A stretch of 24,174 nucleotides of DNA, taken from positions 1 through 24,174 of the forward strand of contig JBHHYO010000039.1 of NCBI GenBank assembly GCA_046757665.1, given 5' to 3'. Under the pieces are notes generated by a model. The model ran no database searches and was not told where the DNA came from. It worked only from the letters and a program-made list of their open reading frames with translations. Shown here piece after piece: positions 5,368 through 23,305 of the stretch (within the stretch, counting starts at the first letter, position 1; the number at the start of each line of letters is the position of its first letter). Source of the DNA: Nitrospinales bacterium (lineage in GTDB: Bacteria; Nitrospinota; Nitrospinia; Nitrospinales; JAJDAT01). The translations under genes and the position numbers were made by a program.

Positions 5368-6648
5368 TCAGGAGTCGGCGGCGCAACGGAAGCCGACGCC
5401 CTCGGCGCGCAGGTCGTGCCAGAGCCCACTGCGGTTGGCGGAGCGCAGTTCGCCGGGGCCGGTGTTCCAGCCGCCGCCGCGAATGCCTTTTGCCTCCGTC
5501 GGCGGCGGTCCTTTGGGATTTTCCCTGGGGCTGAACCGGTAATAATGCTCGTCCATCCAGTCCGCCACCCACTCGCCCACGTTGCCCGCCATGTCGTGAA
5601 GTCCGAAGGCGTTGGCGGTGAATGACCCCACCGGCGCGGTGCGCGGAAAGCCGTCGGTCGCGGTCGCTACCCGCACATTCAATTCGCAGGCGCTGTCGCA
5701 AAAGTTGGCGTACTTGCCGTCGATGCCGTCTCCCCAATAATAATTGCTAACCGAACCGGCGCGCGCCGCGTATTCCCATTCGGCTTCCGTGGGCAGGCGC
5801 TTGCCCGATTTTTTGCAAAAAGCATCGGCCTCGTCCCAGGTCACGCTGTCCACCGGCAGGTCGGGTCCGGGGTTTTGCGACGGATTGGACTCCATCATCA
5901 ACTGAAAAGCCCTTTGGGTGACTTCGTGCTTGTCCATGAGGAACGAGGCGACGCAAACCTCATGCGCGGGTTGCTCGTCCGGACTGCCCGATGCACTGCC
6001 CATGAGATAGCATCCGCCCGGAATGGCGACCTTTTCTATCGGGGCGGACTGCTGGGAAGCGGCGATGATGCCTTTATTGACAACCGCCTTGAGTTCTCTT
6101 ACCCGCTCGTATGTCGTCCGCAGAACGCCGACGTATTTTATCCGCACCTGGTACTGGGGGACGAGTTTCATTTTCCCCGACTTTTTAAAAAACAGGCGGT
6201 AGTGAGGGATGGGCTCGGTCAATTTCAAGTCGAGGTAATTTTTCATATTGTTTTTGCCGCTTTCCGGGGCGACCACGGTTTCGTCCACCAGCTCGGCTTC
6301 CAGAGGCTCGGCCTGGCCCTTCTCGAATACCAGCACGTTGCGGCCATGGGCGACGGGCATTGCCAGAATACGGTCAACAAAGACCTTGGCCTCGCTGAAT
6401 TTTCCCAGCTTGATTTTCACTTCCGCCAGGGATTTCAAAATGCGCGGGTTATCCGGCTCCAATGCCAGGGCGCGCTCGAAGGCGCGTTCCGCCTCGGAGA
6501 ATTTTTTGTCGGCCCATGCCTTGTCGCCGGCGGCGGCCAGGACGGCCAGGTCCTCCCCGGCCGCGCTGATAGCAAAAAGAGGGAGCGCCAGGGCAAACCC
6601 AAGAATCAACAGATAGCGCGTAAAAAATGTGTCCTTTTCTTGCGTCAT
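5368..6648 (-). CDS. Exported TPR-containing protein with C-terminal FGE/SUMF1-fold domain
   Basis: Hydrophobic N-terminal signal; TPR-like AERAFERALALEPDN; FGE-fold motifs MDKHEVT, RLPTEAEWEYAAR, NAFGLHDMAGNVGEW, RGGGW, GFRCA. Confidence 0.85.
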   Translation of the reverse strand: MTQEKDTFFTRYLLILGFALALPLFAISAAGEDLAVLAAAGDKAWADKKFSEAERAFERALALEPDNPRILKSLAEVKIKLGKFSEAKVFVDRILAMPVAHGRNVLVFEKGQAEPLEAELVDETVVAPESGKNNMKNYLDLKLTEPIPHYRLFFKKSGKMKLVPQYQVRIKYVGVLRTTYERVRELKAVVNKGIIAASQQSAPIEKVAIPGGCYLMGSASGSPDEQPAHEVCVASFLMDKHEVTQRAFQLMMESNPSQNPGPDLPVDSVTWDEADAFCKKSGKRLPTEAEWEYAARAGSVSNYYWGDGIDGKYANFCDSACELNVRVATATDGFPRTAPVGSFTANAFGLHDMAGNVGEWVADWMDEHYYRFSPRENPKGPPPTEAKGIRGGGWNTGPGELRSANRSGLWHDLRAEGVGFRCAADS

Positions 6649-6789
6649 GTAAACGTCCTCAATCGAAAGAATTTATTGAAACCTGTCGCGGAGTTGGCGG
6701 TGTTTCCGCCGCCACATCATTATACGCTTTCGGGTTTGCCGGTCCGCAAGAGGAAAATTTCGTCTTGAACCAACACCTACCCCCTGCCG

Positions 6790-7402
6790 CCTTTCAACCT
6801 GCCGGGTCGAAAGGGCTTCCGCCAGCGCATACCTGCACTCCACGCTATATGTAAGGGATAAAAACGGAGGCCGGAGGCGGGAGACCGGAAAAAGCTTTAA
6901 ACCGCAAAGGCGCCAAGGGCGCAAAGGAAAAAGCCCCCCAGCCCCCTTCCAGAAGGAGAGCAAATTTCAAATGGGGTTTTTCTGTGTTCATCTGTGTACA
7001 TCGGTGGTTAGATTTTTTCTTTTCTTTGCGCCCTCTGCGCCTTTGCGGTGATTTCGGCATGGTAAATTTTAATCTTCAAACGGCGGGGTTCGGCATGGGA
7101 AAATATGAAACAAAAATATCTTTTAATATCAATATATTATAATAATATTTTTAAAGCTTTTTCGAGGACGGTTTTTCCGCAAAATCCGGTCATTTTTTAC
7201 CTGACGGGAGAGTTGGAGAACCGGTTGCATAACAAGGGGTTGTCGTCTTTGCAGGCTGACATTTAGACTATTTCGTTCCTCGTTTTTCAAAAATTTTTTT
7301 TTCGTAAAAACCGGCCCGGTCAGGGTTTTTGAAAACCTGGATTCGCTCAACTTATTTGAAACAAGGGGGTTGGATTAACGGATATGGACTGCTCGGTCAG
7401 GC
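6790..7402. repeat. Copy 1 of a ~600-bp composite non-coding repeat (terminal hairpin, arm A 6821-6893, variable palindromic slot 6902-7048, arm B 7045-7402)
   Basis: 6821-6893 matches the reverse complement of 21882-21954 at 65/73. 7045-7287 matches the reverse complement of 21499-21741 at 200/243 without gaps. Weaker similarity continues to GTCAGGC (7396-7402 vs 21383-21389). Confidence 0.92.
6901..7049. repeat. REP-like long palindrome with nested half-palindromes
   Basis: ACCGCAAAGGCGCCAAGGGCGCAAAG (6901-6926) pairs with CTTTGCGCCCTCTGCGCCTTTGCGGT (7024-7049). The loop contains CCCCCCAGCCCCCTTCCAGAAGGAGAG (6934-6960) and TCTGTGTTCA-TCTGTGTACA-TCGGTGGTT (6981-7009). Confidence 0.85.
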
Positions 7403-7430
7403 GTGGGGTTCAAGGCGCCCGGCCGCCCGG

Positions 7431-8258
7431 CTAAACCAGATGGAGGGTGAGAACGTGGTTGATTTGCAGTACCGGCGGGCCGGCGGGTTTTGCTTTCAGG
7501 ACAAAGGTCTGTCCGTCGCGGGTTCCCCTGGGAACGAAAAATTTGATCGCGCCCTGAATGGTGTTCAGGGTCAGCACCCGGCCATTGCCGATGTCTTCCC
7601 GGGGCACCGTCATTTCATAGAAGAAATTCGTGGTTCCGGGGCTGATGACTCCTCCCGGGACCACGCGGATCTTCAGGAGCAAGTCGCCGCGCCGCCCTTT
7701 AATGAAACTTTTGCCGCCTTTTTCGGAGAGCAGGAGTTCGATCGGATTCTGCGTGGTGGCGGGGATTTTGACTCGAAAGCTCTCGGAGGGCGTTCGCACT
7801 TTGATCGTGCCGCCGGTGGCGGCGGCTCCGGCGTCCAGGGTGACGGCTTTTTCGACATCCAGGAGAAAGGCTTTTCTCTCGAACTCGAACAGATTCTGCT
7901 TCATGCGCTCTGCCCATTCTTGAAACCGCTGGCGGGTTTTCTCGGGCACACAGTTTTCAACCACCCGTTGCAACGTATTGAAAAGTCCGCCTGGATTCCT
8001 TGCCGCCATGCCCGGCGCGGCGGGATGGCGAACCGCGCGCCCGGTTTGAAGCGCCTTGTAATGGCGGTCCAATTTATTGTAAGCTTGGGAGATTGTTTTG
8101 AAGCGGGCTTCGTGGGCCGGATTGCCCCGGTTCATATCGGGATGGTAACGCCGCGCCAGGACGCGGTAGGCTTTTTTTACCTCATCCCAACCCGCACCTC
8201 GAGGGATGTTCAACGCTCTGTAGCAGTCGGGAATGCGCATCGAAATTTCAGGATACAT
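7431..8258 (-). CDS. DnaJ-domain protein (CbpA/class B-like, no zinc finger)
   Basis: J domain KKAYRVLARRYHPDMN..FKTISQAY; DnaJ C-terminal-like GRRGDLLLKIRV; no CxxCxGxG repeats. Start could be 8240. Confidence 0.8.
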   Translation of the reverse strand: MYPEISMRIPDCYRALNIPRGAGWDEVKKAYRVLARRYHPDMNRGNPAHEARFKTISQAYNKLDRHYKALQTGRAVRHPAAPGMAARNPGGLFNTLQRVVENCVPEKTRQRFQEWAERMKQNLFEFERKAFLLDVEKAVTLDAGAAATGGTIKVRTPSESFRVKIPATTQNPIELLLSEKGGKSFIKGRRGDLLLKIRVVPGGVISPGTTNFFYEMTVPREDIGNGRVLTLNTIQGAIKFFVPRGTRDGQTFVLKAKPAGPPVLQINHVLTLHLV

Positions 8259-8404
8259 GATTTATGCCAAATCCGCGAAACACCGATTGATCAAAATAGT
8301 GTGTTGATTTTTTTGTGGTTAAAGCTTGAAGGATTTTTCATAAAAACGCAAGGGGTCGGCAAAATTTTCCGGGTTCGCCGGATTTTTTTCACCACCGGAT
8401 TATC

Positions 8405-9448
8405 ATGAACAACCTGATCGGTTACTCCGAAAAACAACTGCAACGGATATTGTCCGATTGGCGGGAAAAGCCTTATCGCACCTGCCAGATATTGACATGG
8501 GTTTACCACCATGGGGCGAGGGATTTCGACCTCATGAGCAACCTGTCGAAGGACTTGCGAAACCGGTTGAAGGAGCATTTTTGTTTCGCCCTGCCGGCAA
8601 TCCGCAATAAAACCCGGTCGCGGGACGGCTCCATAAAATATCTTTTCGAGCTGGCGGACGGATCGACGATCGAAAGCGTCTGGATGCCGTCGGAAAACCG
8701 GGACACGCTGTGCATTTCCACGCAGGTGGGATGCCGGCTGGCCTGCTCCTTCTGCCTGACGGGGCGGATGGGGCTCAAGAGAAACCTGAGTTCGGCGGAG
8801 ATCGTCGGCCAGATCATCGCGGTCAACGAAGATTTGCCGGAGGAGCAGAGGCCTTCCAACATCGTGATCATGGGCATGGGCGAGCCGCTCGACAATTACG
8901 ACGAGGTGGTCCGAGCCGTCGGCTTGATGGTTTCCCCGCACGCCATGAAGATATCGACCCGGAAAATAACATTATCGACTTCGGGCCTGGTCGACAAAAT
9001 CCGGCGGTTTGCCGGGGAGAATCTGCATGTCAATCTTGCCGTTTCCCTGAACGCCACCGAGGAGGCGACGCGCACCCGGATCATGCCGATCAACAAAAAA
9101 CATTCGCTGGAGGAGCTTTTGCGCTGTCTGCGCGACTATCCCTTGAAACCAACGCGCCGGATTACGTTTGAATATGTTTTGATCGAGGGCGTCAACGACA
9201 GCCGGGAAGACGCCGTCCGCCTGGCGAAACTGTTACGGGGAATTCGTTGCAAGATCAACCTGATCCCCTTCAACGATTTCGATGGGGTGGCGTACCGTCC
9301 GCCATCGGAAGAAACGGTTTTGTTTTTCCACGAGTACCTGCTTGCGAGGAACTTTTCCGTTTTCATCCGCAAAAACCGGGGTACGGACATTCTGGGCGCG
9401 TGCGGGCAACTGGCGGCGCGGTCTTTCGACACGGCGTCCGCCAATTAG
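8405..9448 (+). CDS. rlmN: Dual-specificity 23S rRNA A2503 / tRNA A37 C2-methyltransferase RlmN
   Basis: TLCISTQVGCRLACSFC, MGMGEPLDN, LAVSLNA, FEYVLI, NLIPFN, DILGACGQL. Confidence 0.97.
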   Translation: MNNLIGYSEKQLQRILSDWREKPYRTCQILTWVYHHGARDFDLMSNLSKDLRNRLKEHFCFALPAIRNKTRSRDGSIKYLFELADGSTIESVWMPSENRDTLCISTQVGCRLACSFCLTGRMGLKRNLSSAEIVGQIIAVNEDLPEEQRPSNIVIMGMGEPLDNYDEVVRAVGLMVSPHAMKISTRKITLSTSGLVDKIRRFAGENLHVNLAVSLNATEEATRTRIMPINKKHSLEELLRCLRDYPLKPTRRITFEYVLIEGVNDSREDAVRLAKLLRGIRCKINLIPFNDFDGVAYRPPSEETVLFFHEYLLARNFSVFIRKNRGTDILGACGQLAARSFDTASAN

Positions 9449-9470
9449 CAACGGACTTTATCAAATCGCC

Positions 9471-10208
9471 ATGGAACCCATCGGCAAACAATCGGACTCG
9501 CCTGATCTCTCCATCGTTATCCCTTTATACAACGAAAGGGAAAACCTGGTTGACCTGGAAGAGGAGTTGCAGAAACATCTTGAAAAGTTGCGCCGGAGCT
9601 ATGAAATCATTTTCATCGACGACGGCAGTCAGGACGGCGGCGCCGAGGTGATCCGATGCTTAAAGAGTATCAACCCGCACATACGCCTGATCCAATTTCG
9701 GGCCAACGCGGGACAAACCGCCGCGTTCGACGCCGGTTTCAAAGCCGCCCGGGGCGAGGTGGTGGTGACCCTGGATGCCGACCTGCAAAACAATCCAGCC
9801 GACATCCCCTTATTGCTTGAAAAAATCGGCGAATACGATATGGTATGCGGCTGGCGGCACAGGCGCAACGACCCGTGGATCAAAAAGGTTTCATCAAAAA
9901 TCGCCAACGCGGTGCGCAACCGGCTGAGCGAGGAAAACATTGCCGACACCGGTTGCTCGCTGAAGGCGTTTCGCAGGGAGTGTTTGCGGGACCTGAAGCT
10001 TTATAACGGCATGCACCGGTTTTTTCCCACGCTGGTAAAAATGCGCGGATTCAAGGTTACCGAGACCAAAGTCAATCATTATCCTCGCCGCCACGGAGTA
10101 TCGAAATATAATATCAGAAACCGTCTGCTCAGTTCATTTATGGACCTTTTGGCTATCCGGTGGATGAAAAAGCGGCGGCTGAACTACCAAATTTGCTCGG
10201 GGGACTAA
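9471..10208 (+). CDS. Glycosyltransferase family 2 (polyprenol-phosphate glycosyltransferase, ArnC/DPM-synthase-like)
   Basis: SIVIPLYNE, IDDGSQD, NAGQTAAFDAG, TLDADLQN, DTGCSLKAFR, GMHRF. Start set at the ATG following the rlmN stop. Confidence 0.9.
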   Translation: MEPIGKQSDSPDLSIVIPLYNERENLVDLEEELQKHLEKLRRSYEIIFIDDGSQDGGAEVIRCLKSINPHIRLIQFRANAGQTAAFDAGFKAARGEVVVTLDADLQNNPADIPLLLEKIGEYDMVCGWRHRRNDPWIKKVSSKIANAVRNRLSEENIADTGCSLKAFRRECLRDLKLYNGMHRFFPTLVKMRGFKVTETKVNHYPRRHGVSKYNIRNRLLSSFMDLLAIRWMKKRRLNYQICSGD

Positions 10209-10490
10209 ATGACCACAACCCACTGGTTAATTATCGGCTTTGTCGGCCAGACATTTTTTTTTATGCGGTTTCTCATCCAGTGGCTGGTATCGGAAAAACG
10301 CGGTGAAAGCACCATACCCATTGCCTTCTGGTACTGTAGTATTGGAGGAAGCGCCATTTTGTTGAGCTATGCGATTCACAAACAGGACCCCGTTTTCATT
10401 CTGGGCCAGAGCGTAGGCTCCTTTATTTACATTCGCAATCTTATCCTGATTGCGCGCAAGCAGAAAACTATCGAAGAACCCCAGCCATGA
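10209..10490 (+). CDS. Lipid-A-disaccharide synthase N-terminal (LAB_N) domain small membrane protein
   Basis: IGFVGQTFFFMRFLIQWLVSEKRGES.IP.AFWY.SI.G..LSYAI..DPVFILGQ..IYIRNL. Abuts the GT2 stop. Confidence 0.88.
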   Translation: MTTTHWLIIGFVGQTFFFMRFLIQWLVSEKRGESTIPIAFWYCSIGGSAILLSYAIHKQDPVFILGQSVGSFIYIRNLILIARKQKTIEEPQP

Positions 10491-10693
10491 GACCCTGGAA
10501 ATACCGTTTAATCGGCTTGACATTGATGGTCCTGGGCGGCTTTCTTTTCGTTTGGGCCATAAAATATGTATCCTCCGAATGGCCGCAAATATTTACCGGT
10601 CTCCTGTCGATTTTTTTTCTGTCCATGGGATTCGGGTTGCTGATTATGCCGATTGAAGCCCGGCGCACGGAATCGACAACAAAAACCGATTGA
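10487..10693 (+). CDS. Small two-helix membrane protein, unknown function
   Basis: Two hydrophobic segments; ATGA overlap with the LAB_N gene. Confidence 0.7.
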   Translation: MRPWKYRLIGLTLMVLGGFLFVWAIKYVSSEWPQIFTGLLSIFFLSMGFGLLIMPIEARRTESTTKTD

Positions 10694-10817
10694 AAAGAAT
10701 TTTTGCCGCCCGGATAAGAATTTTCCTAGGCCGGGTCAGCCTGAACGCAATAAAGCAAACGGGGTTTGCCGCTGAAAGAAGGCTACAAGCCCTTTAATAT
10801 GGGGATTTATAATTTTC

Positions 10818-10846
10818 TTGACTTGGAAAAACCCCTGTGATATCTC
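10818..10846 (+). promoter_or_regulatory. Putative sigma70 promoter of the bd-like oxidase operon
   Basis: TTGACT (10818-10823), 17 nt ending in TGA, then TATCTC (10841-10846); AT-rich upstream region. Confidence 0.4.
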
Positions 10847-11030
10847 TTACGTTCTTTCCGGATATGATCCGTTTAAGAAGATTTCCGGAAGGTCGAAAAC
10901 GTGTAATACCGATCGCCTCGTATTATAAAATCAAGCAAACCCAACGCCATTTTTTGGGCGGATTTAAAAATGATTAACCCGCTTTTTTGCTGAAACCTGT
11001 AAGGCTTTCAGCACGTGAGGAGCCCCCCTG

Positions 11031-13325
11031 ATGGCCAGGCCCGGATTTTGCCGAAAAAAAACGTTTTGTTTTAAGCTGGTCACAGCCTCTTTCCTCGCCT
11101 TCTTCCTGAGCCTAATCGCTCTGCCCGCAACCCTGTCGCCGGCTTTTTTAAAGGTGGTGAACCTTGGCCCCGTTGCCGCCCTCGCCCAGGAGGAAGGGGG
11201 CGAAACAGCCGAGGAATTTGCCGGAGAAGAGGAATTTTTCGAGGAAGAATTTTCCGGGGAGGAAGCGACAGGCGCCGCCGAAACTGAAACAGCCGTGGAA
11301 GACGCCGCCACCGACGAATTCGCCGGAGACGAAGAGTTCGCCGGGGAAGAGTTTGCAGGAGATGAGTTCGCCGGGGATGAAGAGGTCGTGGGCGATGAGG
11401 AATTTGCCGGGGACGATGAATTTGCCGCCGACGATGAAGAAGAAGGCGAAGATGAAGAGGGCGGCGAGGGAGAGGCCGGGGAGGAAGAAGACCCGGATGC
11501 CTGGAAATACGATGTCGGCATCGCCCAGGACCAGAAAGTGGACACGTTCATCTTTCCGGGAATCGGCAATCGGCACGCTACCTGGTGGGCCGCGCAAATG
11601 CACATCTTATTTGCCTCCTTCATCCTGGGCTGTCCCATGTTCGTCGTCATCATGGAGGTCATGGGCGCTCCCCGAACCCAGGGAGTCCGCAAATCCATTA
11701 TTCTCTCGAATGTTTTCCTCGGCGTATTGATCGGGGTCGTCATCGGCATCACCGGCGAAATCATCCTCGACATCCACCACGGCGTTCTCTTCGGATTATG
11801 GGCCTGTTCCTTCGGAGCCCTTGTCGTCAGTTTCCTGAACTACTTCCACAAGGCGACGAATACCAAGGTTTCCGCGGCGATCGGCGGCATAACGGGCTTG
11901 ATTTTCGCCGCGTCCCTGGTGGAAGGCCATATGTCCGGATACATTCTGGCTCTCGTCAACGGGATCGTCGGCGGAATCCTTTCCAACGGCATCATGTTCG
12001 CCAAGGCCGATTTTAAGTTTGAAAGGCTGGCTCACGAGGTCACCAAGGTCATCGGCATCTGTTACAGTTTTACGGCCCTCACCGGCGGACTGTTCCTGCT
12101 GGTCATGCTGGTCGCTTACCGGGACTTCATAAGCTATCTGGTATCGCTTTATCCGGTCCTGTTCATGATCGCGTACCCCACGCTTTTCATCCTTGAAACC
12201 ATCGTGATGTACGTTTACGTGTACTCGTGGGAGCCTCTTAATCTGCAAAACAAGAAAGGCCGCCACATCGTTTGCGGCGTGGTATTGAATATTCTGGGCC
12301 TGACCCTGTTGTGCGCCCTGGACGGTCCGGCAACCTTGATGCAAACCCCGCCGAAGCCGATTGACATGTTGCCCAGCATGAGCGAATGGGACAAGATCGC
12401 AACCGCCACATGGATGCCGCTGAATTACCACCGGCTGGTGGGCAACGGTACTTTCGGCGGATACCTGGTCGGCATCATTGGAGCCTATATGTACCTGTGG
12501 TCCTCCGACCCAAAAGAAAAAGAATACTATGACTGGGTCGGTTACACGGGCAACATTATCGGCGTCGCTATCATGATTCCCCTGCCCGCCATGGGTTACA
12601 TTTTCGTCAGGGAGATTTATCAATACGACGCCACCATCGGCATGTATATCATGTCCGACCGCGAGTCGATGTTCATGCTGGTCCAGGGACTGCTGGTAGG
12701 AACCATGTTCAGCGCCAGCAATGTCTATATGTGGGTCAGTATGAAGCGCATTGAGAATGCCCAGCGGTTTTTCCCCTTCATGAAAGTCGGTTTTGTGTTG
12801 ATCGTCATTGCCGCGGCGATCTGGTTCACGCCGCGACGGTTTTTCGCAACCATGATTCCCGAACCGCAAATGAATCCCGAGATGGTGCTTCCGGAACATC
12901 TGGCCGTCATGGCGTTGATGATATCCAAAAACACTGCCGCGTTCGCCCTGGTCACAGTTACTTTCATCAATTACATCTTTTACACCATCGCCACGAAAAC
13001 CGGCAAGGTGCATTACGGGAAAATCAATCCCCTGGGAATTTACGTCCTTATTTTTCTTGGCTTCAGCGACATCTGGCTGTTGAGCTGGATGGGAACCATC
13101 CGCGAGCTATCCAGAATGAACTGGCATATTTACAGAGTATTCAAGGACATCACCCCGGACAAATTCGCGCCCACTCTTGCCAACGCGGGAATGCAGGTGA
13201 CTGAAATCGTCTGGGCCTTTTTCATCATCATGACCGCCATCGTCTGGCTGGGGATCAAATATCCCAAAAGCGTTAAGGAAAAAGCGAAGCAACCGCCCCA
13301 GGCCGCGCCGCAGATGGCTGAATAA
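11031..13325 (+). CDS. Cytochrome bd-like oxidase subunit I (CydA-related) with signal peptide and acidic N-terminal repeat region
   Basis: Polytopic membrane protein. QMHILFASFILG and NYHRLVGN resemble the CydA haem-ligand His motifs. LFILETIVMYVYVYSW and WMGTIRELSRMNWHIY resemble CydA FFLE and ExGRQPW. Exact start uncertain. Confidence 0.82.
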   Translation: MARPGFCRKKTFCFKLVTASFLAFFLSLIALPATLSPAFLKVVNLGPVAALAQEEGGETAEEFAGEEEFFEEEFSGEEATGAAETETAVEDAATDEFAGDEEFAGEEFAGDEFAGDEEVVGDEEFAGDDEFAADDEEEGEDEEGGEGEAGEEEDPDAWKYDVGIAQDQKVDTFIFPGIGNRHATWWAAQMHILFASFILGCPMFVVIMEVMGAPRTQGVRKSIILSNVFLGVLIGVVIGITGEIILDIHHGVLFGLWACSFGALVVSFLNYFHKATNTKVSAAIGGITGLIFAASLVEGHMSGYILALVNGIVGGILSNGIMFAKADFKFERLAHEVTKVIGICYSFTALTGGLFLLVMLVAYRDFISYLVSLYPVLFMIAYPTLFILETIVMYVYVYSWEPLNLQNKKGRHIVCGVVLNILGLTLLCALDGPATLMQTPPKPIDMLPSMSEWDKIATATWMPLNYHRLVGNGTFGGYLVGIIGAYMYLWSSDPKEKEYYDWVGYTGNIIGVAIMIPLPAMGYIFVREIYQYDATIGMYIMSDRESMFMLVQGLLVGTMFSASNVYMWVSMKRIENAQRFFPFMKVGFVLIVIAAAIWFTPRRFFATMIPEPQMNPEMVLPEHLAVMALMISKNTAAFALVTVTFINYIFYTIATKTGKVHYGKINPLGIYVLIFLGFSDIWLLSWMGTIRELSRMNWHIYRVFKDITPDKFAPTLANAGMQVTEIVWAFFIIMTAIVWLGIKYPKSVKEKAKQPPQAAPQMAE
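11211..11492 (+). repeat. Intragenic tandem repeat encoding (D/E)EFAG(D/E) units and a poly-acidic tract
   Basis: About 8 degenerate GA(A/G)TT(T/C)GCCGG(A/G)GA units; translation EEFAGE...DEFAGDEEFAGEEFAGDEFAGDEEVVGDEEFAGDDEFAADDEEEGEDEE. Confidence 0.9.
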
Positions 13326-13351
13326 CAAATCGATTTTGGAGAGTTCTTACT

Positions 13352-14461
13352 ATGGAAGGTAAAAGCTTCCTCGAAAACATTAAATTCAAGATTCCCTTTT
13401 TTCTGGTGCTTTCCGTAACCATATGGTTTGTGGCGGGAAAGCTCGGGTTTCCCATTTGGTGGCAAATCGAGTTCGTTATTTTTGCATTTGTCGGGTTGGT
13501 TTTTTTCATTCTTTTAGACCTCCCTACCTTAAAACCTGAAAAAGGGGCGGGAAGGAAAACATTCCGCCTGCTGTCCACCTACGCCCTGGCTTCCGGCATA
13601 TTTATCACAGTTACCCAGCAACTGCCGCAATTTGATCCGGCCGTTGAACTGGAAAAACTCAACAAACCCCCGGTCAAACTTTCCGGACTCGCCGGTCCGG
13701 AGGTCATCGCCGCGGGACGATCGGTTTTCGAGGAAAACAAATGCTTCAACTGCCACAAGGTGTTCTGGGAAGGCAACTCCGACCGCGGACCAAATCTCGG
13801 CACCCGACAGATCGGCCTGTACTCGGAAGAGTACATCAAGGAGCAAATCCTTGAGCCGCGCAAGGACCAGGCGCCCGGATTCGATGATCCCAAGTCCAAA
13901 AAAGCCATGCCCACTTATTATGGTGAAGACCTGAGCGAGGACGAACTCAACGCCCTGGTCTCCTATTTGAAAACCCTGCGGGACCCGGAACATATTCCCG
14001 TCGAAGGCAAACTGGGCAACCAGTGGACTTGGTGGGACGATCCCAAAATCATTGCGGAAGGCCAAAAAGTCTTTGAAGGCGTCGAAGAAGCCACCCAACC
14101 CCTGAACTGCTCCGTCTGCCACGGCAAAGAAGGCATTCCGCTCATGACCGGAGCTTTTGATTTCCGCGACCCCAACCGCAAGGACACCACGAAGATGCCC
14201 GACCACGTCGAGGCGCCACTGAAAGACTGGCCCGATTCCCTGTGGTACCGGCGCGTGACCCGCGGCATCGACGGAACACCTATGGCCGCCTGGGGCAAGG
14301 CGTTCCCCCATTATTACCTCTGGAAGGCCGAAGCCTATGCCCGCACCTTCCACGATCCCTTGGAGAAAAGGAAGGAGAAAAAACCCATCCCTCCCATCCC
14401 CACCAAGGAAGACATCGAAAGGTGGAAAAAGGAAGGCTTGTTTCTTGACCCGCTACTCTAA
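13352..14461 (+). CDS. Membrane-anchored diheme c-type cytochrome
   Basis: Three N-terminal hydrophobic helices; CFNCH and CSVCH haem motifs with candidate distal Met in AMP and PMAAW; RBS GGAG upstream. Confidence 0.9.
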   Translation: MEGKSFLENIKFKIPFFLVLSVTIWFVAGKLGFPIWWQIEFVIFAFVGLVFFILLDLPTLKPEKGAGRKTFRLLSTYALASGIFITVTQQLPQFDPAVELEKLNKPPVKLSGLAGPEVIAAGRSVFEENKCFNCHKVFWEGNSDRGPNLGTRQIGLYSEEYIKEQILEPRKDQAPGFDDPKSKKAMPTYYGEDLSEDELNALVSYLKTLRDPEHIPVEGKLGNQWTWWDDPKIIAEGQKVFEGVEEATQPLNCSVCHGKEGIPLMTGAFDFRDPNRKDTTKMPDHVEAPLKDWPDSLWYRRVTRGIDGTPMAAWGKAFPHYYLWKAEAYARTFHDPLEKRKEKKPIPPIPTKEDIERWKKEGLFLDPLL

Positions 14462-14503
14462 CAGCGTACGCTCCTGATTTTAACCGTCAGGAGCAATTCA
14501 TTC

Positions 14504-14550
14504 GCCGGTTCCGGAGCTTTGCCTGGCTCCCGGAACCGGCTTTTTTGTTT
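14504..14550 (+). terminator. Rho-independent terminator of the oxidase/cytochrome c operon
   Basis: GCCGGTTCCGGAGC...GCTCCCGGAACCGGC stem (14504-14540) followed by TTTTTTGTTT. A second hairpin GCTCCTGA/TCAGGAGC (14470-14494) precedes it. Confidence 0.85.
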
Positions 14551-14615
14551 GCATTGACCGCGGACAAGGATAAAATAAAACTACGAAATTTCATAAATGG
14601 AACCCATAAACGACT

Positions 14616-15095
14616 ATGAGCAAAATCGACGATTTGATCCGCGAAAATTTGTCTCCCGACGGCGAAATCCTGACCTTGAAAGAAAAAATGGTCGGGGTCA
14701 GGGGCACCATGGAACTGGCCACGAAACAAGCTCTCGCCAAAGTGAAAATCCTGGTTTACTCCGGAAACCAGTGTTGCGACGAGGGCGTCGAGGCGCTGGC
14801 GAATTCGCCCTTTCTTTCCAACCTGGAAACCTTGAACTTGAATCACAATGAAATCGGCGATGAGGGCGCCGTCATTTTAGCCACATCGCGGAATTTTCCC
14901 AAGCTGACCAATCTGTCCCTGTTCGGCAACGTCATCGGCGACGAAGGCGCCAAGGCCTTCGCCGATTCCAGCGAGAGCAAGCGATTGGCCCGCCTGGACC
15001 TTTATAAAAATCAGTTTGGCAGTGCAGGTATCCGCGCACTCAACGAATCCGAGAACCTCAAGAACTGCGAGGAACTGGAATACTCGCAAGACTGA
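14616..15095 (+). CDS. Small leucine-rich-repeat protein
   Basis: ~27-residue repeats LxxLxLxxNxIGDEGAxxLA (LNLNHNEIGDEGA, LSLFGNVIGDEGA, LDLYKNQFGSAG). Candidate promoter TTGCAT-16-TAAAAT at 14549-14576. Confidence 0.85.
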   Translation: MSKIDDLIRENLSPDGEILTLKEKMVGVRGTMELATKQALAKVKILVYSGNQCCDEGVEALANSPFLSNLETLNLNHNEIGDEGAVILATSRNFPKLTNLSLFGNVIGDEGAKAFADSSESKRLARLDLYKNQFGSAGIRALNESENLKNCEELEYSQD

Positions 15096-15130
15096 GAAAA
15101 AATGCCATACAATGCCGCTCCCACACTTCG

Positions 15131-15415
15131 TTAACTCATCTTTTCCCATTGTTGCGGCGTAAAGGTTTTGATTTGCAGGGCATGGATCAATTTGGGCGTG
15201 CCATTCATCTGTTGATCCAGAGCCCCATAAACCAGACGGCGCTGGTCGATCAGGCTGACGTTTTCAAACCGGGGGGAAACCACCGTGAGATTATAATGCC
15301 CGCCGCCGCCGGCGGCCTTGTGCCCGGCATGTAAATAGCTCTCGTCAATAATTTTCACGTAGGTGGCCCCCAGATTTTCTTTTAAAATATTATAAATAAT
15401 ATCAACTGGTTGCAT
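15131..15415 (-). CDS. bolA: BolA-family protein
   Basis: IIDESYLHAGH, GGHY.L.VVS.RF, R..VY.AL, IHALQIKT.TP..W; RBS AAGGA upstream. Confidence 0.9.
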   Translation of the reverse strand: MQPVDIIYNILKENLGATYVKIIDESYLHAGHKAAGGGGHYNLTVVSPRFENVSLIDQRRLVYGALDQQMNGTPKLIHALQIKTFTPQQWEKMS

Positions 15416-15560
15416 AATAAATCCTTATAAATAGCTTTAAGAAAGAAAACAACGCTTCAAAACAATCTCCAAGGGAGAGAACGAAATAAATAACCGCAAA
15501 CCCGGCGTTTCATGCGATTATATTAAGTGACCCAAAAAATAGAAACCGGAGGATAACAGC

Positions 15561-15818
15561 ATGTTTTTTTATCAAATCGGCCAGCCCGGCGCGAAACTGC
15601 CGTTCCGAACCAAAGCGGCGATGATCCTGGGCATCGTGGCCGCCCTTTCGGTTTTGGCCGTGTTCGCGTTTACGTTATTTCTTGTCGCCTTGTGCGGAGG
15701 GTTGGTATTGCTTGTCATGAACCTGTTCCGCAAACCCGCCCCTCCGGCCAGCCCGCCCGGCGCTTGCCGTCCCTACCAGCCACCGCGCGCCCGTAACGAC
15801 GACGTGATTGACATTTGA
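15561..15818 (+). CDS. Small membrane protein with Pro-rich tail ending DVIDI
   Basis: Strong RBS GGAGG; long hydrophobic hairpin; divergent from bolA. Confidence 0.7.
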   Translation: MFFYQIGQPGAKLPFRTKAAMILGIVAALSVLAVFAFTLFLVALCGGLVLLVMNLFRKPAPPASPPGACRPYQPPRARNDDVIDI

Positions 15819-15831
15819 CTTAAAATTCACG

Positions 15832-17238
15832 TCAAACGGTTTCCTCCCGTTTTTTGAAAATGTGCACGGGATGGCCGATGTGCAATTCGGCGGCTTCCAT
15901 AAGCGTTTCGGAAAGCGTGGGATGCGGATGAATGGACAGGGCGAGGTCGCGCGCCACCGCCCCCATCTCCACCGCCAGGACGGCTTCGGCAATCAACTCT
16001 CCCGCCCCGGCGCCCACAATACCGACGCCAAGGATGCGGCCGGTTTTCGGTTCCACCACCAGCTTGGTCAACCCGTCGTTGCGGTCCAGAGTCGTGGCCC
16101 TTCCCGAAGCCCCCCAGGGGAAACTTGCCGTTTGAACTTCCCGCTCCGCGGTGCGCGCCTCGGTTTCGGTAAGCCCGCACCAGGCGATTTCCGGATCGGT
16201 AAAAACCACCGCGGGAATGGCCCGGTTGTCGAACTCCGCCGATTCGCCGGCCATAACGTCCACCGCCACCTTGGCCTCGCTCGACGCCTTGTGGGCCAGC
16301 ATGGCGCCGCCGACAACGTCGCCGATAGCGTATATTCCCGAATCGTCCGTCCGTTGACGCTTGTCTACGCGGACGAATCCCCGGTCGTCCAGCCGCACGC
16401 CGGTATTTTCCAGCCCGATTCCGCCGCTGTTGGGCGCACGGCCCACCGAGACCAGTACACGGTCAAAGGTTTGCCGCACGGTACCGGTTTCGCTCTTGAG
16501 GCCGGCAACGACTTCGCCGGTTCCGGCTTCCAGCGACTCAACGCCGGTTTGGAGCAAGATATTCTCGAACGCCTTTTTCAGCCGGGCTTGCAGAGGGCGC
16601 ACCAGGTCGCGGTCAATCCCCGGCAGAATCCCGTCCATCATCTCCACTACCGTCACACGGCTACCCAGCGCGGCGTACACCGTGCCCATTTCCAGTCCGA
16701 TGTAACCGCCGCCGACGATGAGAAGCCGTTCGGGAACCTCCTCCATTTCCAGGGCTCCCGTGGAATCCATGATCAGCGGGCTGTCGTGGCGGAGCGCGGA
16801 GGGCATGATCGGACTGGACCCCACGGCCAGGATAGCCCGATCAAATTCCAGAGAATTTTTGCCGTCCACCACAACGTGACGGGAGTCCTTGAAAACCCCT
16901 CGTCCGGTGACAATAGCGACTCCCCGTTTTTTGCAGAGAGCGACCAGGCCGCCGGCCATTTTGGCAACGACCTGGTTTTTCCATTTTCGCAGAGCGTCGA
17001 GGTCGATTTCCGGTTCGGAGAAAGTGATTCCCCATTGTCTGGCTTGCCGGGCCTCGGAGATGAGCCTGGCAACATGCAACAGCGCCTTGGAGGGAATGCA
17101 ACCCCGGTGCAGACACACGCCTCCCGGCTTGCTTTCGGTATCGACAAGCGTCACCTTCATTCCCTTGTCCGCCGCCAGGAAGGCCGCGGTGTATCCTCCC
17201 GGTCCGCCGCCCAACACCAGCAGGTTTTTCGAGGTCAT
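15832..17238 (-). CDS. lpdA: Dihydrolipoamide dehydrogenase (E3)
   Basis: GGGPGGY, GGVCLHRGCIPSK redox disulfide, GGGYIGLE, HPHPTLSE. Confidence 0.97.
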   Translation of the reverse strand: MTSKNLLVLGGGPGGYTAAFLAADKGMKVTLVDTESKPGGVCLHRGCIPSKALLHVARLISEARQARQWGITFSEPEIDLDALRKWKNQVVAKMAGGLVALCKKRGVAIVTGRGVFKDSRHVVVDGKNSLEFDRAILAVGSSPIMPSALRHDSPLIMDSTGALEMEEVPERLLIVGGGYIGLEMGTVYAALGSRVTVVEMMDGILPGIDRDLVRPLQARLKKAFENILLQTGVESLEAGTGEVVAGLKSETGTVRQTFDRVLVSVGRAPNSGGIGLENTGVRLDDRGFVRVDKRQRTDDSGIYAIGDVVGGAMLAHKASSEAKVAVDVMAGESAEFDNRAIPAVVFTDPEIAWCGLTETEARTAEREVQTASFPWGASGRATTLDRNDGLTKLVVEPKTGRILGVGIVGAGAGELIAEAVLAVEMGAVARDLALSIHPHPTLSETLMEAAELHIGHPVHIFKKREETV

Positions 17239-17239
17239 C

Positions 17240-18529
17240 CTATCCTCCGAGCATCAATTCCTCGCAGTTTTCCAATTCGTGCGCGATAAACCGGGCGAAG
17301 CGGGCGCCATCGGCGCCGTCGATCACGCGATGATCGTAAGAAACGCAAAACGGCATCACCAGCCGGGGTTCGAACCTCTTGTCCCGCCACACCGGCCGGA
17401 TGGCGCTACGCGACAAACCGATCACCGCCACGTCCGGAGGAATCACCAACGGCCCAAACCCGGTGCCGCCGATGCCCCCCAGGTTGGAAACGGAAATATT
17501 GCCGCCTCTCAGTTCCTCCAGGGAGACCTTGCGGTCGCGGGTGCGTTGCGCCAGATCGTTCAATTCCACCGCCAGCTTGAGAAAGCTCTTTTTATCGACA
17601 TCCTTGATCACCGGCACGATCAACCCCGACGGCGTATCCACCGCCACGCCGACATTGCAGTAATGTTTGTAAACGATCTCGCCGCGGGCCAGGTCGAGGC
17701 TGGCGTTGAACTGGGGAAACGCTTTCAAGGCCGCCGCCACGGCCTTGATGACGAAAACGGTCACCGTCAACCGGCCTCCCTGATTCTTCACATATTCGGC
17801 GTTTTTCTTCCTGACCTCCTCCAGCTCGGTGATATCCGCCTCGTCAAACTGCGCGACCAGGGGCACGGCATTCCACGCGGCGCCCATCCGGTCGGCTATT
17901 TTGGCGCGCAACGAAGACAACGGCTTGCGCTCGATTTTTCCCCATTGCGAGAAATCGGGTAACTCCGGAGCCTGGGGACCCTGCGTGGGGAAAGTCAGCC
18001 GACGCCTGGCGTATGCCTTGACGTCGTCCAGGGTGATCCTGCCCCCACGCGCCGTTCCGGAAACGCGGGTGAGGTCGATTCCCAACTCCCGCGCCAGCCC
18101 GCGGGCCGCCGGACCCGCCGGAACTCGGGACAAATCCGACACGAGCCCGTCCTTTGCCGACCGGACGACAGCCTCCGGGGTTTTACTTTCCGAAACCGCG
18201 GGTGTTCCCTCCCCTGCCGATTTTGTTGCCTTCTTTTTCTCCGGAGGTTTTACCGAAGGAGGTTTGGCCTCGTCGCCGGAGTCGGAGACTTCTTCCTCCT
18301 CCAGGCTGAACATGACCTGTCCCACTTGAATCTTGTCGCCGTTGCGGACATGGATTTTACCGATACGCCCCGCCCGCGGCGAGGGAACCTCCACCACGGC
18401 CTTCTCGGTTTCCAGTTCCAGCAGAATGGCGTCTTTTTTAACCACGTTCCCCGGCTCGACCAGAATATTCACCACGTCGCCGCCGTCGATGCCGTCACCC
18501 AACGCCGGCAATTTGATTTCATGGGACAT
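17240..18529 (-). CDS. aceF: Pyruvate dehydrogenase E2, dihydrolipoamide acetyltransferase (single lipoyl domain)
   Basis: Lipoyl motif LETEKAVVEVP, E3-binding PAAR..ARELGIDL..V.GT..GGRI, catalytic SYDHRVIDGA. Start placed at ATG 18529 by RBS spacing. Confidence 0.93.
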   Translation of the reverse strand: MSHEIKLPALGDGIDGGDVVNILVEPGNVVKKDAILLELETEKAVVEVPSPRAGRIGKIHVRNGDKIQVGQVMFSLEEEEVSDSGDEAKPPSVKPPEKKKATKSAGEGTPAVSESKTPEAVVRSAKDGLVSDLSRVPAGPAARGLARELGIDLTRVSGTARGGRITLDDVKAYARRRLTFPTQGPQAPELPDFSQWGKIERKPLSSLRAKIADRMGAAWNAVPLVAQFDEADITELEEVRKKNAEYVKNQGGRLTVTVFVIKAVAAALKAFPQFNASLDLARGEIVYKHYCNVGVAVDTPSGLIVPVIKDVDKKSFLKLAVELNDLAQRTRDRKVSLEELRGGNISVSNLGGIGGTGFGPLVIPPDVAVIGLSRSAIRPVWRDKRFEPRLVMPFCVSYDHRVIDGADGARFARFIAHELENCEELMLGG

Positions 18530-18564
18530 AGGATTCACCTGCCTCCTTCAACAAGAGACCTTAA

Positions 18565-18678
18565 GAGTCTTTTGCATAATATTTGCTTGTCATTGCGAGG
18601 CGGCTCCGCCGACGAAGCAATCCAGAAAGGACCCATGACGCCGGGACGGCAAAGAATCTCGACTTATGCAAAGCTCTC
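18565..18678. mobile_element. MITE-like element between aceE and aceF carrying a half REP-like palindrome
   Basis: GAGTCTTTTGCATAA (18565-18579) vs TTATGCAAAGCTCTC (18664-18678), 12/15 inverted match. Interior 18589-18636 is 45/48 identical to 21750-21797. Confidence 0.7.
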
Positions 18679-18680
18679 CT

Positions 18681-21353
<2,673 letters not shown>

Positions 21354-21382
21354 CCTCGCCGCCTTTCGCGTGGAAGCCGCCT

Positions 21383-21978
21383 GCCTGACTATTTCATCCG
21401 CAATCGCCGAAGCAACTCCCCCGTTTTAAAAGATTTGTCCCGAATCCCCGGCCAAAAAACCCTGACCGGCCGGCTTTTTCACAAAAAAAAATTTTTCAAA
21501 AAACGAGGAACGAAATAGTCAAAACGTCAGCCTGCAAACCCAGCAACCTCTTGTTATACAATGGACTTTCCAACTCACCGGTCAGGTAAAAAATGAACGG
21601 ATTTCGCGGAAAAACCACCCTAGAAAATGCCTGAGAAATAGCCTTGTAATATATGAATATTAAAAGAAATTTTTATCACTTATTTTCTCATACCGAAGGC
21701 CGCTTTTTGAAGATTAAAATTTACAATACCGAAATCACCGCGTTCGATCGTCGTTGCGAGGAGGCTCAGCCGACGAAGCAATCCAGAAAGGACCCATTCC
21801 CACCGGGCGTGGCCCGGCTGGATCGCCACGCCGCCGCTGGCGGCGGCTCGCGATGACATCGAAGCGGAGAAACCGTCGTTGTTTTCCCGGTCTCCCGTCT
21901 CCGGCCTCCATTTTTATCCCTTACATATAGCGCCAAGTGCAGGTATGTGCCGGCCCCGCACCTTGAAAAACAAGGCGC
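21383..21978. repeat. Copy 2 (inverted) of the ~600-bp composite non-coding repeat (arm B 21383-21741, variable slot 21738-21867, arm A 21882-21954, terminal hairpin 21958-21978)
   Basis: Reverse-complement match to 6821-6893 and 7045-7402 as described for copy 1. The slot content is unrelated to that of copy 1. Confidence 0.92.
21738..21867. repeat. REP-like branched palindrome (GTCRTTGCGAG...GCAATC / GATYGC...CTCGCRATGAC type)
   Basis: CCGCGTTCGATCGTCGTTGCGAG pairs with CTCGCGATGACATCGAAGCGG; GCAATCCAG (21778-21786) pairs with CTGGATCGC (21818-21826); side hairpins at 21803-21817 and 21830-21847. Confidence 0.85.
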
Positions 21979-22100: not shown

Positions 22101-22652
22101 TCAATCGGGCAGGCTCTTCCTGTGCCGGCGGCGGCTGAGTTGTTGCCATTTCAGCGGTTGCGCTTTCACCCGGGTCCTGGAGAGCATGTAATTGAAAAGT
22201 TTGCGGGCGTCTCCCCGGCTGGTGTTGGGGCCCGCCAGTTTGTCCAGCCAGTTTTTTTCCAGGTCGAGAAACGGTTGCAGGCCGGCGGCGGTTTTCCTGA
22301 CAATCTGCAAATTGCTCGGGTCCGCCGACCTTTTAAAGTTAAAGCCCGATTCCCGGTGCGCGGGCCCGGCGGCCAATTTAAAGTCACCGGGCTCGGCCAG
22401 ACCCGACCGGGAAGCGAGAAAATAGCCCACGGCAAACCCCTTTTCCGTCGCGCACAGCTTTTCCAGATGGTTCAGGATATCCTCGGGGTCCGTGCCCGCA
22501 AGCGACCATCGAGCCCCGCCGCCGGTCTGAAAAACTCCCAGGTCGGCCAGGTGATGCAGGAAGGCGCGCACGACTTCCTCCCCGGCGTCCGGCGGCACGA
22601 TGTCCCGTTTAAACCGCGCCACCCAGGTTTCCAACGTCCGCGCCTCGCTCAC
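22101..22652 (-). CDS. Hypothetical protein
   Basis: In-frame GTG at 22652 overlaps the MOSC stop (GTGA) and has GGAGG upstream. No family recognised. Confidence 0.65.
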   Translation of the reverse strand: MSEARTLETWVARFKRDIVPPDAGEEVVRAFLHHLADLGVFQTGGGARWSLAGTDPEDILNHLEKLCATEKGFAVGYFLASRSGLAEPGDFKLAAGPAHRESGFNFKRSADPSNLQIVRKTAAGLQPFLDLEKNWLDKLAGPNTSRGDARKLFNYMLSRTRVKAQPLKWQQLSRRRHRKSLPD

Positions 22653-23305
22653 CTCAGCGCCTCCAGTTTTTGCAAGCGTGCGCGAAAGGTTTCCTTCCAC
22701 TCCTCGGACAGCGTATCCAGGGCAAGCATATCACGAATTCTTTGCGGATTTTTCTTGTCTTCATACATAAGGTGGTTGGCCGCCGTCACGCTGATCCGCT
22801 TGTCGTCCGCCCGCAAAAGCGTCAGTTCACCGCCGGGTTTCAGCCAGCCCGGACGCAGGACGCGGCAATAAAATCCGGTATACCCCATCCGTTGAACCCG
22901 GCTGGTCATATCCGGCAGGCCAAAAATATTGTTCAACTTGTAGCAAGGCTGGCGGGGTTGCGAGACCTGCACCTCGGCCTCGCCGGCGCGAAACACGTCG
23001 CCGACGTGGACGGCGCTTTCATCCAGGCCGGAAACGGTCAGATTTTCGCCGAACGCGCCGGGGGACAGTTTTCTGGCCAATTTCTCTTCCCACCAGGGGT
23101 AATGATCCAGCAAATAAACGCACGCCGCCTTGTTCGGCCCCCCATGATGACGCCGGTCGGCACAGCCGTCCCCATCGAATCCCAGGAAATCCAGATAAAC
23201 CGGCTTCGCAACCGGTTTCTTCAAAATCCCCGAAACCATCGTTCTGGCGTCTCCCAGTACTACCGGCCCCGGAAGCGAGATATTGATGGATGCAATGATG
23301 GGCAT
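22649..23305 (-). CDS. MOSC-domain protein (YiiM-like, with C-terminal 3-alpha region)
   Basis: SGILKKPV, GFDGD..AD..HHGG, GAFGENLT, VSQPRQPCYKL, TGFYCRVL. Start placed at ATG 23305 (23341 possible). Confidence 0.9.
   Translation of the reverse strand: MPIIASINISLPGPVVLGDARTMVSGILKKPVAKPVYLDFLGFDGDGCADRRHHGGPNKAACVYLLDHYPWWEEKLARKLSPGAFGENLTVSGLDESAVHVGDVFRAGEAEVQVSQPRQPCYKLNNIFGLPDMTSRVQRMGYTGFYCRVLRPGWLKPGGELTLLRADDKRISVTAANHLMYEDKKNPQRIRDMLALDTLSEEWKETFRARLQKLEALR

Follow-up and report, generated by a model that had tools for sequence, protein, structure and literature searches.

What kind of sequence is the non-coding DNA of about 600 nt that stands twice, in opposite orientations, on contig JBHHYO010000039.1 of a Nitrospinales bacterium? 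This contig of 24,174 nt, C39 of the assembly, was analysed at its full length and is hereafter called the window. The initial annotation of the window described two arms, A and B, present twice, and proposed a dispersed family of functional DNA sites, with a capture platform and an undescribed system in mind. Both arms were recovered on re-measurement. A repeat finder paired 6821–6893 with 21882–21954 for arm A (inverted pair I2, 73 nt, 89% complementary), in agreement with the 65 of 73 matching positions given before, and 7045–7310 with 21476–21741 for arm B (inverted pair I1, 266 nt, 82%). By blastn, the arm B pair extended over 287 nt with 82.2% identity and one gap (E 4e-77), which is far beyond chance; the noted identity of arm B was confirmed, but the match is longer than had been described. 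The description 'present twice' did not hold, as the genome contains at least 40 copies. The family is real and oddly constrained, and no new mechanism is demonstrated for it.

The genome is a fragmented draft of a metagenome-assembled genome (MAG) of 2,972,371 bases in 160 contigs, with a completeness of 97.6%. Single-sequence nhmmer searches of this assembly detected 38 matches for arm A and 40 for arm B, of which 30 were near full length, and profiles built from the alignments detected 41 and 42 matches, respectively, as expected for the dispersed family that had been suspected. The order of the arms is fixed: in every pair, arm A precedes arm B on the same strand at a distance of 9–760 nt, and 26 pairs are complete. 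The flanks are unrelated between copies, and 82 of the 83 matches overlap crude gene calls by 30 nt or less, indicating an intergenic location. Because many matches touch contig ends (9 for arm A and 12 for arm B), the copy count is a lower bound. In addition, 28 of the 320 contig ends have a match at a distance of 400 nt or less, indicating that the family itself breaks the assembly. Together, the cores of both arms amount to 15,017 bases, or about 0.5% of the assembly, and account for approximately one third of the DNA with five or more other copies (43,009 bases, 1.45%). Two arm A copies on one contig (C54:16179–16322 and 17294–17415), about 1.1 kb apart, have a common 5′ flank and resemble a local segmental duplication, not two insertions.

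The element is 0.5–1.2 kb long and modular, and is built in the order of arm A, GGAGRCS heptads, optional nested repeats, arm B, a variable module and a terminal YCGGTCAGG. In the alignment of 32 copies, the 5′ edge of arm A is sharp and starts with ACACCTMCCCC. Arm A contains the conserved words GCATACCTGCA and GCTATATRTAAGGGATAAAA and is followed by the heptads, which vary in number. Arm B, of about 285 nt, ends at its 3′ side with CCGGTCAGG. It is followed by a variable module of 45–95 nt that belongs to one of at least four classes (including a–d) and is closed by a second GTCAGG, mostly within the sequence GCGGGCG..YCGGTCAGG. Of the 21 occurrences of this terminal motif, 18 are located within 400 nt of an arm B. 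The classes of the variable module do not track the two arm B subfamilies, so that the family is a mosaic.

The initial annotation had asked for the contents between the arms to be tabulated, and these proved to be other repeats. The A|B junction is highly variable and may hold the modules mid1 and mid2 as well as small GC-rich hairpin repeats. Full-length matches to mid1 were found on contigs carrying A–B elements. By eye, the 89-nt inner segment of mid1 stands in one orientation relative to the arms in at least nine copies and in the other in four, and the mid1 copy at C95:8623–8770 is inverted relative to A and B; this difference could reflect either inversion between the repeats of mid1 or insertion in either direction. 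The module mid2 is a repeat family in its own right, about 130 nt long, with inverted ends of the GTCATYGCGAG type and 89 matches in the genome. Nine of these 89 matches lie in A|B junctions, which make up about 1% of the non-coding DNA, corresponding to an approximately ninefold enrichment.

The conservation of arm B is concentrated in short blocks. Among 27 full copies, the 17-mer AAATTTTAATCTTCAAA showed 2 deviations from the consensus in 459 sites and the 22-mer GACTATTTCGTTCCTCGTTTTT showed 2 in 594, compared with 20.4% deviation over the 226 columns outside the blocks. This contrast between blocks and columns is not that of uniform neutral decay. The distance from CGCGAAATTCG to GACTATTTCGTTCCTC was 88 nt in 27 of 29 copies, and the approximately 50 nt between these anchors form the most variable part of the arm; the remaining two anchor distances were 109–112 nt and 58–60 nt. 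Pairwise identity among 24 copies was 77% on average (range 66–89%), with 0.035 gap openings per substitution. Selection on spacing, proposed from the two window copies, is thus borne out across the family. No repeated binding-site word was found in the conserved blocks of the consensus, each motif being unique, and elsewhere in the genome the motifs returned just two matches to the 17-mer, both with two mismatches. Both copies of a related organism (see below) also carry the invariant motifs in intact form. Since they are intact in old copies, these motifs are either still under selection or homogenized between copies. A periodicity of AA/TT of 11.5 bp was also observed in arm B (power of 2.14 compared with 0.20 in shuffles), which counts as one observation because the copies are homologous, and which hints that arm B may form curved DNA.

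Next to this wide spread within one genome stands a narrow distribution outside it. A blastn search with two arm B copies detected no real match in 40 relatives, with one chance match of 36 nt, and only a chance match of 25 nt in 119 other genomes of the phylum. With a sequence-only profile, six isolated matches of 18–28 bits were obtained in 101 other genomes of the order, compared with 229–256 bits in this assembly; the one of these six that comes from the sister genus falls within an open reading frame (ORF) of 740 aa. Exact-motif scans gave no match in 185,579 species, each represented by one genome, or in the viral contigs of IMG/VR, and no match to the element was found in plasmids and phages. 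The scan of metagenomes identified two contigs, L013 and L014, that carry the family, and their genes are 85–89% identical to those of this assembly, indicating that they originate from a congeneric organism. Within these searches, the family is restricted to one genus-level lineage. Literature searches on repeats and miniature inverted-repeat transposable elements (MITEs) of Nitrospina and Nitrospinota yielded no description of such repeats.

The two metagenome contigs provide information on the age of the copies. L013 physically joins contig C129, which carries an arm B, to contig C15, which carries an arm A, and its copy is orthologous to the C129/C15 copy, indicating that this copy was already in place before the two organisms diverged. 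The element on L014, which has three variable modules in tandem, occupies an intergenic region whose counterpart in this assembly (C25:19421–19702) is 282 nt long with no A or B match. In a separate region of the same contigs (L014:7119–8950 and C25:21290–21595), the related organism has about 1.5 kb of extra DNA between syntenic blocks, also with no A or B match.

Taking these results together, we give about an even chance to the reading that the family represents an old, DNA-level, non-autonomous interspersed element, of which the invariant motifs would be protein-binding sites and of which the mobilizing enzyme is not recognized in the assembly. Arms A and B are the conserved cores of a single composite element, A on its 5′ side and B on its 3′ side. 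This element may have multiplied between the genes of an ancestor of the genus-level lineage and is now represented by at least 40 copies. The element would act as DNA, and not as RNA or protein. The unique invariant motifs, the exact distances between them, the freely varying sequence of fixed length in between and the lack of a fold or reading frame suggest a putative protein–DNA complex of defined geometry, in which an enzyme acting in trans, and encoded beside no copy, would bind or cleave at the motifs. That the element moved in the past is suggested by the many copies with unrelated flanks, by their strictly intergenic location and by the single presence/absence difference, on L014. Movement would have taken place without inverted ends and without target duplication; the copies are probably old, and present mobility would be rare at most.

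The ends were compared in 15 elements for which both were defined. Their first 20 nt agreed with the reverse-complemented last 20 nt at 8.7 of 20 positions, compared with 8.3 (SD 1.5) in shuffles, and the longest direct repeat in the flanks was 2.0 nt for own flanks and 1.76 nt for mismatched flanks. Neither terminal inverted repeats (TIRs) nor target-site duplications (TSDs) were therefore detected, and the initial view of the element as non-coding DNA with no clear TIR was upheld. A MITE was rejected, given the lack of TIRs, of TSDs and of a parent insertion sequence (IS) with matching ends in the draft assembly. The statement that no recombinase is associated also stood: none was present among the 20 window ORFs scanned with Pfam, and no recombinase gene lies beside any copy in the whole draft genome.

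Several observations weigh against this reading of an old mobile element. Y1_Tnp, TnpB, RVT_1, rve and Resolvase had no match in the assembly, while the controls matched; for Y1_Tnp/RAYT (PF01797), with 0 matches in the assembly, the control matched in 6 of 14 genomes, and for Y2_Tnp in 0 of the 14 control genomes. The single intact IS110-family transposase gene (357 aa, C124:4859–5932), located at a contig end, is not similar to the element in sequence, and the final 83 nt of its contig gave no meaningful match elsewhere. The sole DDE_Tnp_1 match in the genome is a 115-aa C-terminal remnant of IS1182-like type (DDE_Tnp_1_6, E 4.8e-16). No near-identical pair of copies was found, as no paralogues exceeded 89% identity, giving no sign of recent movement, and the element consensus contains no repeated binding-site word of the kind present in Tn7 or Mu ends. 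In the orthologous pair, arm B was 89.3% identical (258/289) between L013 and C129/C15, compared with 85.1% (639/751) at the third codon positions of the adjacent gene, and is not significantly better conserved than the latter, so that this pair by itself is no proof of constraint. Finally, the presence/absence case on L014 is a single one with one junction on the contig, and could equally be a deletion in this assembly. The missing enzyme has to be read in a fragmented MAG, since multi-copy transposase genes are often lost from such assemblies.

The main rival to an interspersed element fits the same data and differs mainly in who benefits. It proposes a cis-acting DNA module of the host, namely, a platform for a lineage-specific nucleoid-associated or regulatory protein that would act as an insulator, architectural site or portable promoter, and of which the copies are kept by host selection. 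We regard this as a possible explanation, at a distinctly lower probability than a mobile origin. The intact motifs in old copies, their fixed spacing and the retention of an orthologous copy in a second species are all compatible with a host function, as is the AA/TT periodicity of arm B, with the reservation that the copies are not independent samples. In addition, the second copy in the window stands 30 nt in front of the aceE start codon, at the head of the aceE-E2-E3 operon. However, for the 20 near-full arm B copies with genes called on both sides, all four arrangements of neighbouring genes were observed, the convergent one being the commonest (8 convergent, 5 co-directional sense, 4 co-directional antisense and 3 divergent). 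Based on this mixture, a promoter cassette was rejected, and the earlier conclusion that the element is not a shared promoter or untranslated region remains valid. Scans for sigma-70 promoters and intrinsic terminators identified no site common to both window copies, and the counts were not above those of shuffles. Moreover, with the two imperfect 17-mer matches as the only traces of the motifs outside the elements, no original operator is visible, and we know of no candidate protein.

We consider it unlikely that the A and B cores form the cis platform of a new DNA-level system. In such a system, a protein complex would read the motifs at spacings of about 110, 88 and 60 nt, after which it would either mobilize the element, with no need of inverted repeats and no target duplication, or draw other small non-coding repeats into two defined junctions bounded by YCGGTCAGG, in the manner of integron-like capture. 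Nested repeats do gather at the A|B junction, but their enrichment argues weakly for a capture platform, since an insertion-tolerant junction would look alike and several arrangements are common to copies and are thus inherited. The proposal of an undescribed system is not demonstrated over that of an old non-autonomous repeat.

A family of RNA genes is also unlikely. In this reading, transcription of arm B would yield a small RNA with no structure, whose UUCCUC sequence could pair with ribosome-binding sites, or the reverse strand would encode a peptide of 21 residues. The sense strand carries the invariant GUUCCUCG. On the reverse strand, GAGGAA lies upstream of a frame of 21 codons that ends at an invariant TAA. 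In 26 of 27 copies no stop interrupts this frame, and the 88-nt spacing would follow from a coding length that is fixed. This was the best candidate frame; no ORF was common to most copies. However, the frame starts with ATG in 8 of the 27 copies and with ACG in the others, and deviations per column were 5.04, 4.87 and 4.13 for the three codon positions, with no excess at the third. Within the orthologous pair, the differences in the frame are mostly amino-acid-changing by our own reading of the alignment. A protein-coding gene or micro-ORF was rejected on the basis of the start codons and the codon positions.

The evidence for a conserved RNA was likewise negative. No Rfam family matched the window at the gathering score, and a search of 6650–7450 at E values of up to 10 returned only the noise matches mir-3167 and ctRNA_p42d. 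RNAalifold on 25 copies (about 290 columns) gave −5.94 kcal/mol for the sense and −4.68 kcal/mol for the antisense strand, with 4 and 0 compensatory pairs, respectively. The single-sequence fold energy of 29 copies was equal to that of dinucleotide shuffles (mean z of +0.12 and −0.36), no covarying helices of substance were found in arm A or arm B, and no terminator is conserved. These results led us to reject a structured RNA. A guide RNA of the bridge or omega type was also rejected, as the variable segment of 15 elements was no more complementary to its own flanks (longest shared words of 5.3 and 6.1 nt) than to those of mismatched pairs (5.6 and 5.9 nt).

It is very unlikely that the copies are neutral relics with no present constraint, decaying after old segmental duplications or a dead burst of repeats. 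The lack of near-identical pairs, the truncated copies on contigs C80, C109 and C64, and the two arm A copies of C54 with their common 5′ flank would agree with decay. The uneven divergence (about 1% inside the blocks, 20.4% outside them), the near absence of indels, the exact spacing and the unrelated flanks speak against it. The simpler case of just two window copies in neutral decay disagrees with both the number of copies and the non-uniformity of the decay.

The least credible explanation is a known feature out of context, i.e. a leader of clustered regularly interspaced short palindromic repeats (CRISPR), a known IS end or an integron-like attachment site. The assembly contains one CRISPR array (C94:1–627; 36-nt repeat CCTGTAGGACCCTGTCGGATGGGGTGTGATCCGAAC, period 66), which has at least 10 repeats and runs off the contig start, and an arm A begins 36 nt after its last repeat. 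That repeat is degenerate, and as a rule of thumb a degenerate terminal repeat marks the trailer end of an array. A CRISPR leader was thus rejected: the degenerate end faces the C94 copy, and the other approximately 41 copies have no array. Cas1 had no match in the assembly, while its control matched. As to an IS end, the DDE_Tnp_1_6 remnant mentioned above is nested between arms A and B of a copy on contig C6 (C6:57800–58998; L020:495–842, plus strand), but it is a C-terminal fragment, present in a single pair of the 26. Within arm B and again behind it, the words CCTGAC and GTCAGG occur in inverted orientation, but the CCTGAC–GTCAGG segment neither folds nor covaries. The three tyrosine recombinase (Phage_integrase) genes of the genome are not near a copy, the nearest being about 9 kb away, and an integron-like attC/attI site was rejected for these reasons.

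Among described repeats, composite intergenic repeats such as pneumococcal BOX are the closest known things. According to the published account, the BOX elements of Streptococcus pneumoniae and S. suis are modular, with a boxA-boxB(n)-boxC structure, boxE and boxF variants of 115 and 133 nt and a length of 67–637 bp, and they possess TIRs, target-site duplications and predicted stem-loops (PMC3049150). The present family resembles BOX as a composite intergenic repeat of multiple copies and variable size, with conserved end modules, variable inner modules and no transposase of its own, and it is seemingly dormant; the end modules A and B are separated by variable modules of 9–760 nt. It differs from BOX in having no TIR, TSD or stem-loop of the whole element, the optional mid1 alone being a hairpin, and in its longer cores (about 95–120 and 285 nt) of unrelated sequence.

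Also close, as commonly described, are the mosaics of repetitive extragenic palindromes (REPs) and bacterial interspersed mosaic elements (BIMEs) of enterobacteria, which show mosaic combinations of motifs and intergenic locations, often between convergent genes. REPs are palindromes of about 35 nt, and the REPINs built from them accompany a Y1 (RAYT) transposase. The cores of the present element are, in contrast, long and not palindromic, and the assembly has no PF01797 match. MITEs are similar in being non-coding, present in multiple copies, lacking an enzyme of their own and showing nesting, but they differ in their TIRs and TSDs, and the present element is longer than most MITEs and has no parent IS in the assembly. 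IS200/IS605 elements (PATEs, omega RNA) and IS110 elements (bridge RNA) have ends with hairpins or structured RNAs, of which guide segments match the flanks. The family shares with them the lack of TIRs and TSDs, and those elements have long functional non-coding ends; it differs from them in lacking conserved structure and flank complementarity, TnpA and TnpB were not found and the IS110 gene is unrelated. The family clearly exemplifies non-coding DNA whose individual positions are strongly constrained, with no machinery known to read it. If the motifs do bind protein, they would offer a direct handle on a new DNA-binding or DNA-moving protein.

The two window copies illustrate this anatomy. 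Copy 1 (6773–7401, plus strand, 629 nt) begins with an arm A core at 6773–6865, which opens with ACACCTACCCCC, holds the conserved GCATACCTGCA and GCTATATGTAAGGGATAAAA, and lies within a profile match at 6757–6912. The match that had been noted for arm A is real, but the arm of copy 1 starts further 5′ than was assumed. The GGAGRCS heptad run follows at 6866–6888, its length differing among copies as seen in the sequence and the alignments. The mid1 module at 6901–7049 consists of 30-nt inverted repeats (6901–6930 and 7020–7049; pair I5, 90% complementary) around the 89-nt inner segment. The arm B core at 7050–7324 (about 285 nt in the family model) contains the invariant 17-mer AAATTTTAATCTTCAAA at 7064–7080, ATTTTTTACCTGAC at 7192–7205 and the invariant 22-mer GACTATTTCGTTCCTCGTTTTT at 7266–7287, and ends with CCGGTCAGG at 7316–7324. 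The class d variable module at 7325–7401 is closed by the second GTCAGG at 7396–7401, which is the true 3′ end of the element.

Copy 2 (21384–21969, minus strand) has a 5′-eroded arm A at 21878–21969, of which the 3′ two-thirds alone are recognizable (profile positions 67–159). A nested mid2 repeat, belonging to the family with 89 genomic matches, occupies the A|B junction at 21742–21885. The arm B core at 21461–21741 carries the 17-mer at 21722–21706, the 22-mer at 21520–21499 and CCGGTCAGG at 21469–21461. It is followed by a class d variable module at 21384–21460, ending with GTCAGG at 21389–21384, so that both window copies belong to the same class. GTCAGGC is indeed present where similarity had been said to fade out (7396–7402 and, on the minus strand, 21389–21383), but arm B already stops at CCGGTCAGG, and the remainder is the separate variable module.

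Both copies are flanked by minus-strand genes while standing in opposite orientations, and the neighbours called with Pfam agree with the initial annotation on this point. Copy 1 lies between an FGE-sulfatase/TPR gene (5368–6648) and a DnaJ-like gene (7431–8258). Copy 2 lies between an ORF with no Pfam match (22101–22700) and aceE (18681–21353), which is followed downstream by the E2 gene (17240–18538) and the E3 gene (15832–17238). Because the gap between copy 2 and the aceE start codon (ATG at 21353) is 30 nt (21354–21383), the promoter of this pyruvate dehydrogenase operon must lie inside or upstream of copy 2. The copy must thus be compatible with, or contribute to, expression of the operon. 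The spacer that separates aceE from the E2 gene holds a partial mid2 copy at 18582–18636. Apart from the element, a 67-nt direct repeat (11182–11248 and 11368–11434, 70% identity, spacing of 186 nt) was observed within an ORF of 764 aa (11031–13325); this ORF has a weak match to cytochrome bd subunit I, and it is followed by a cytochrome c gene.

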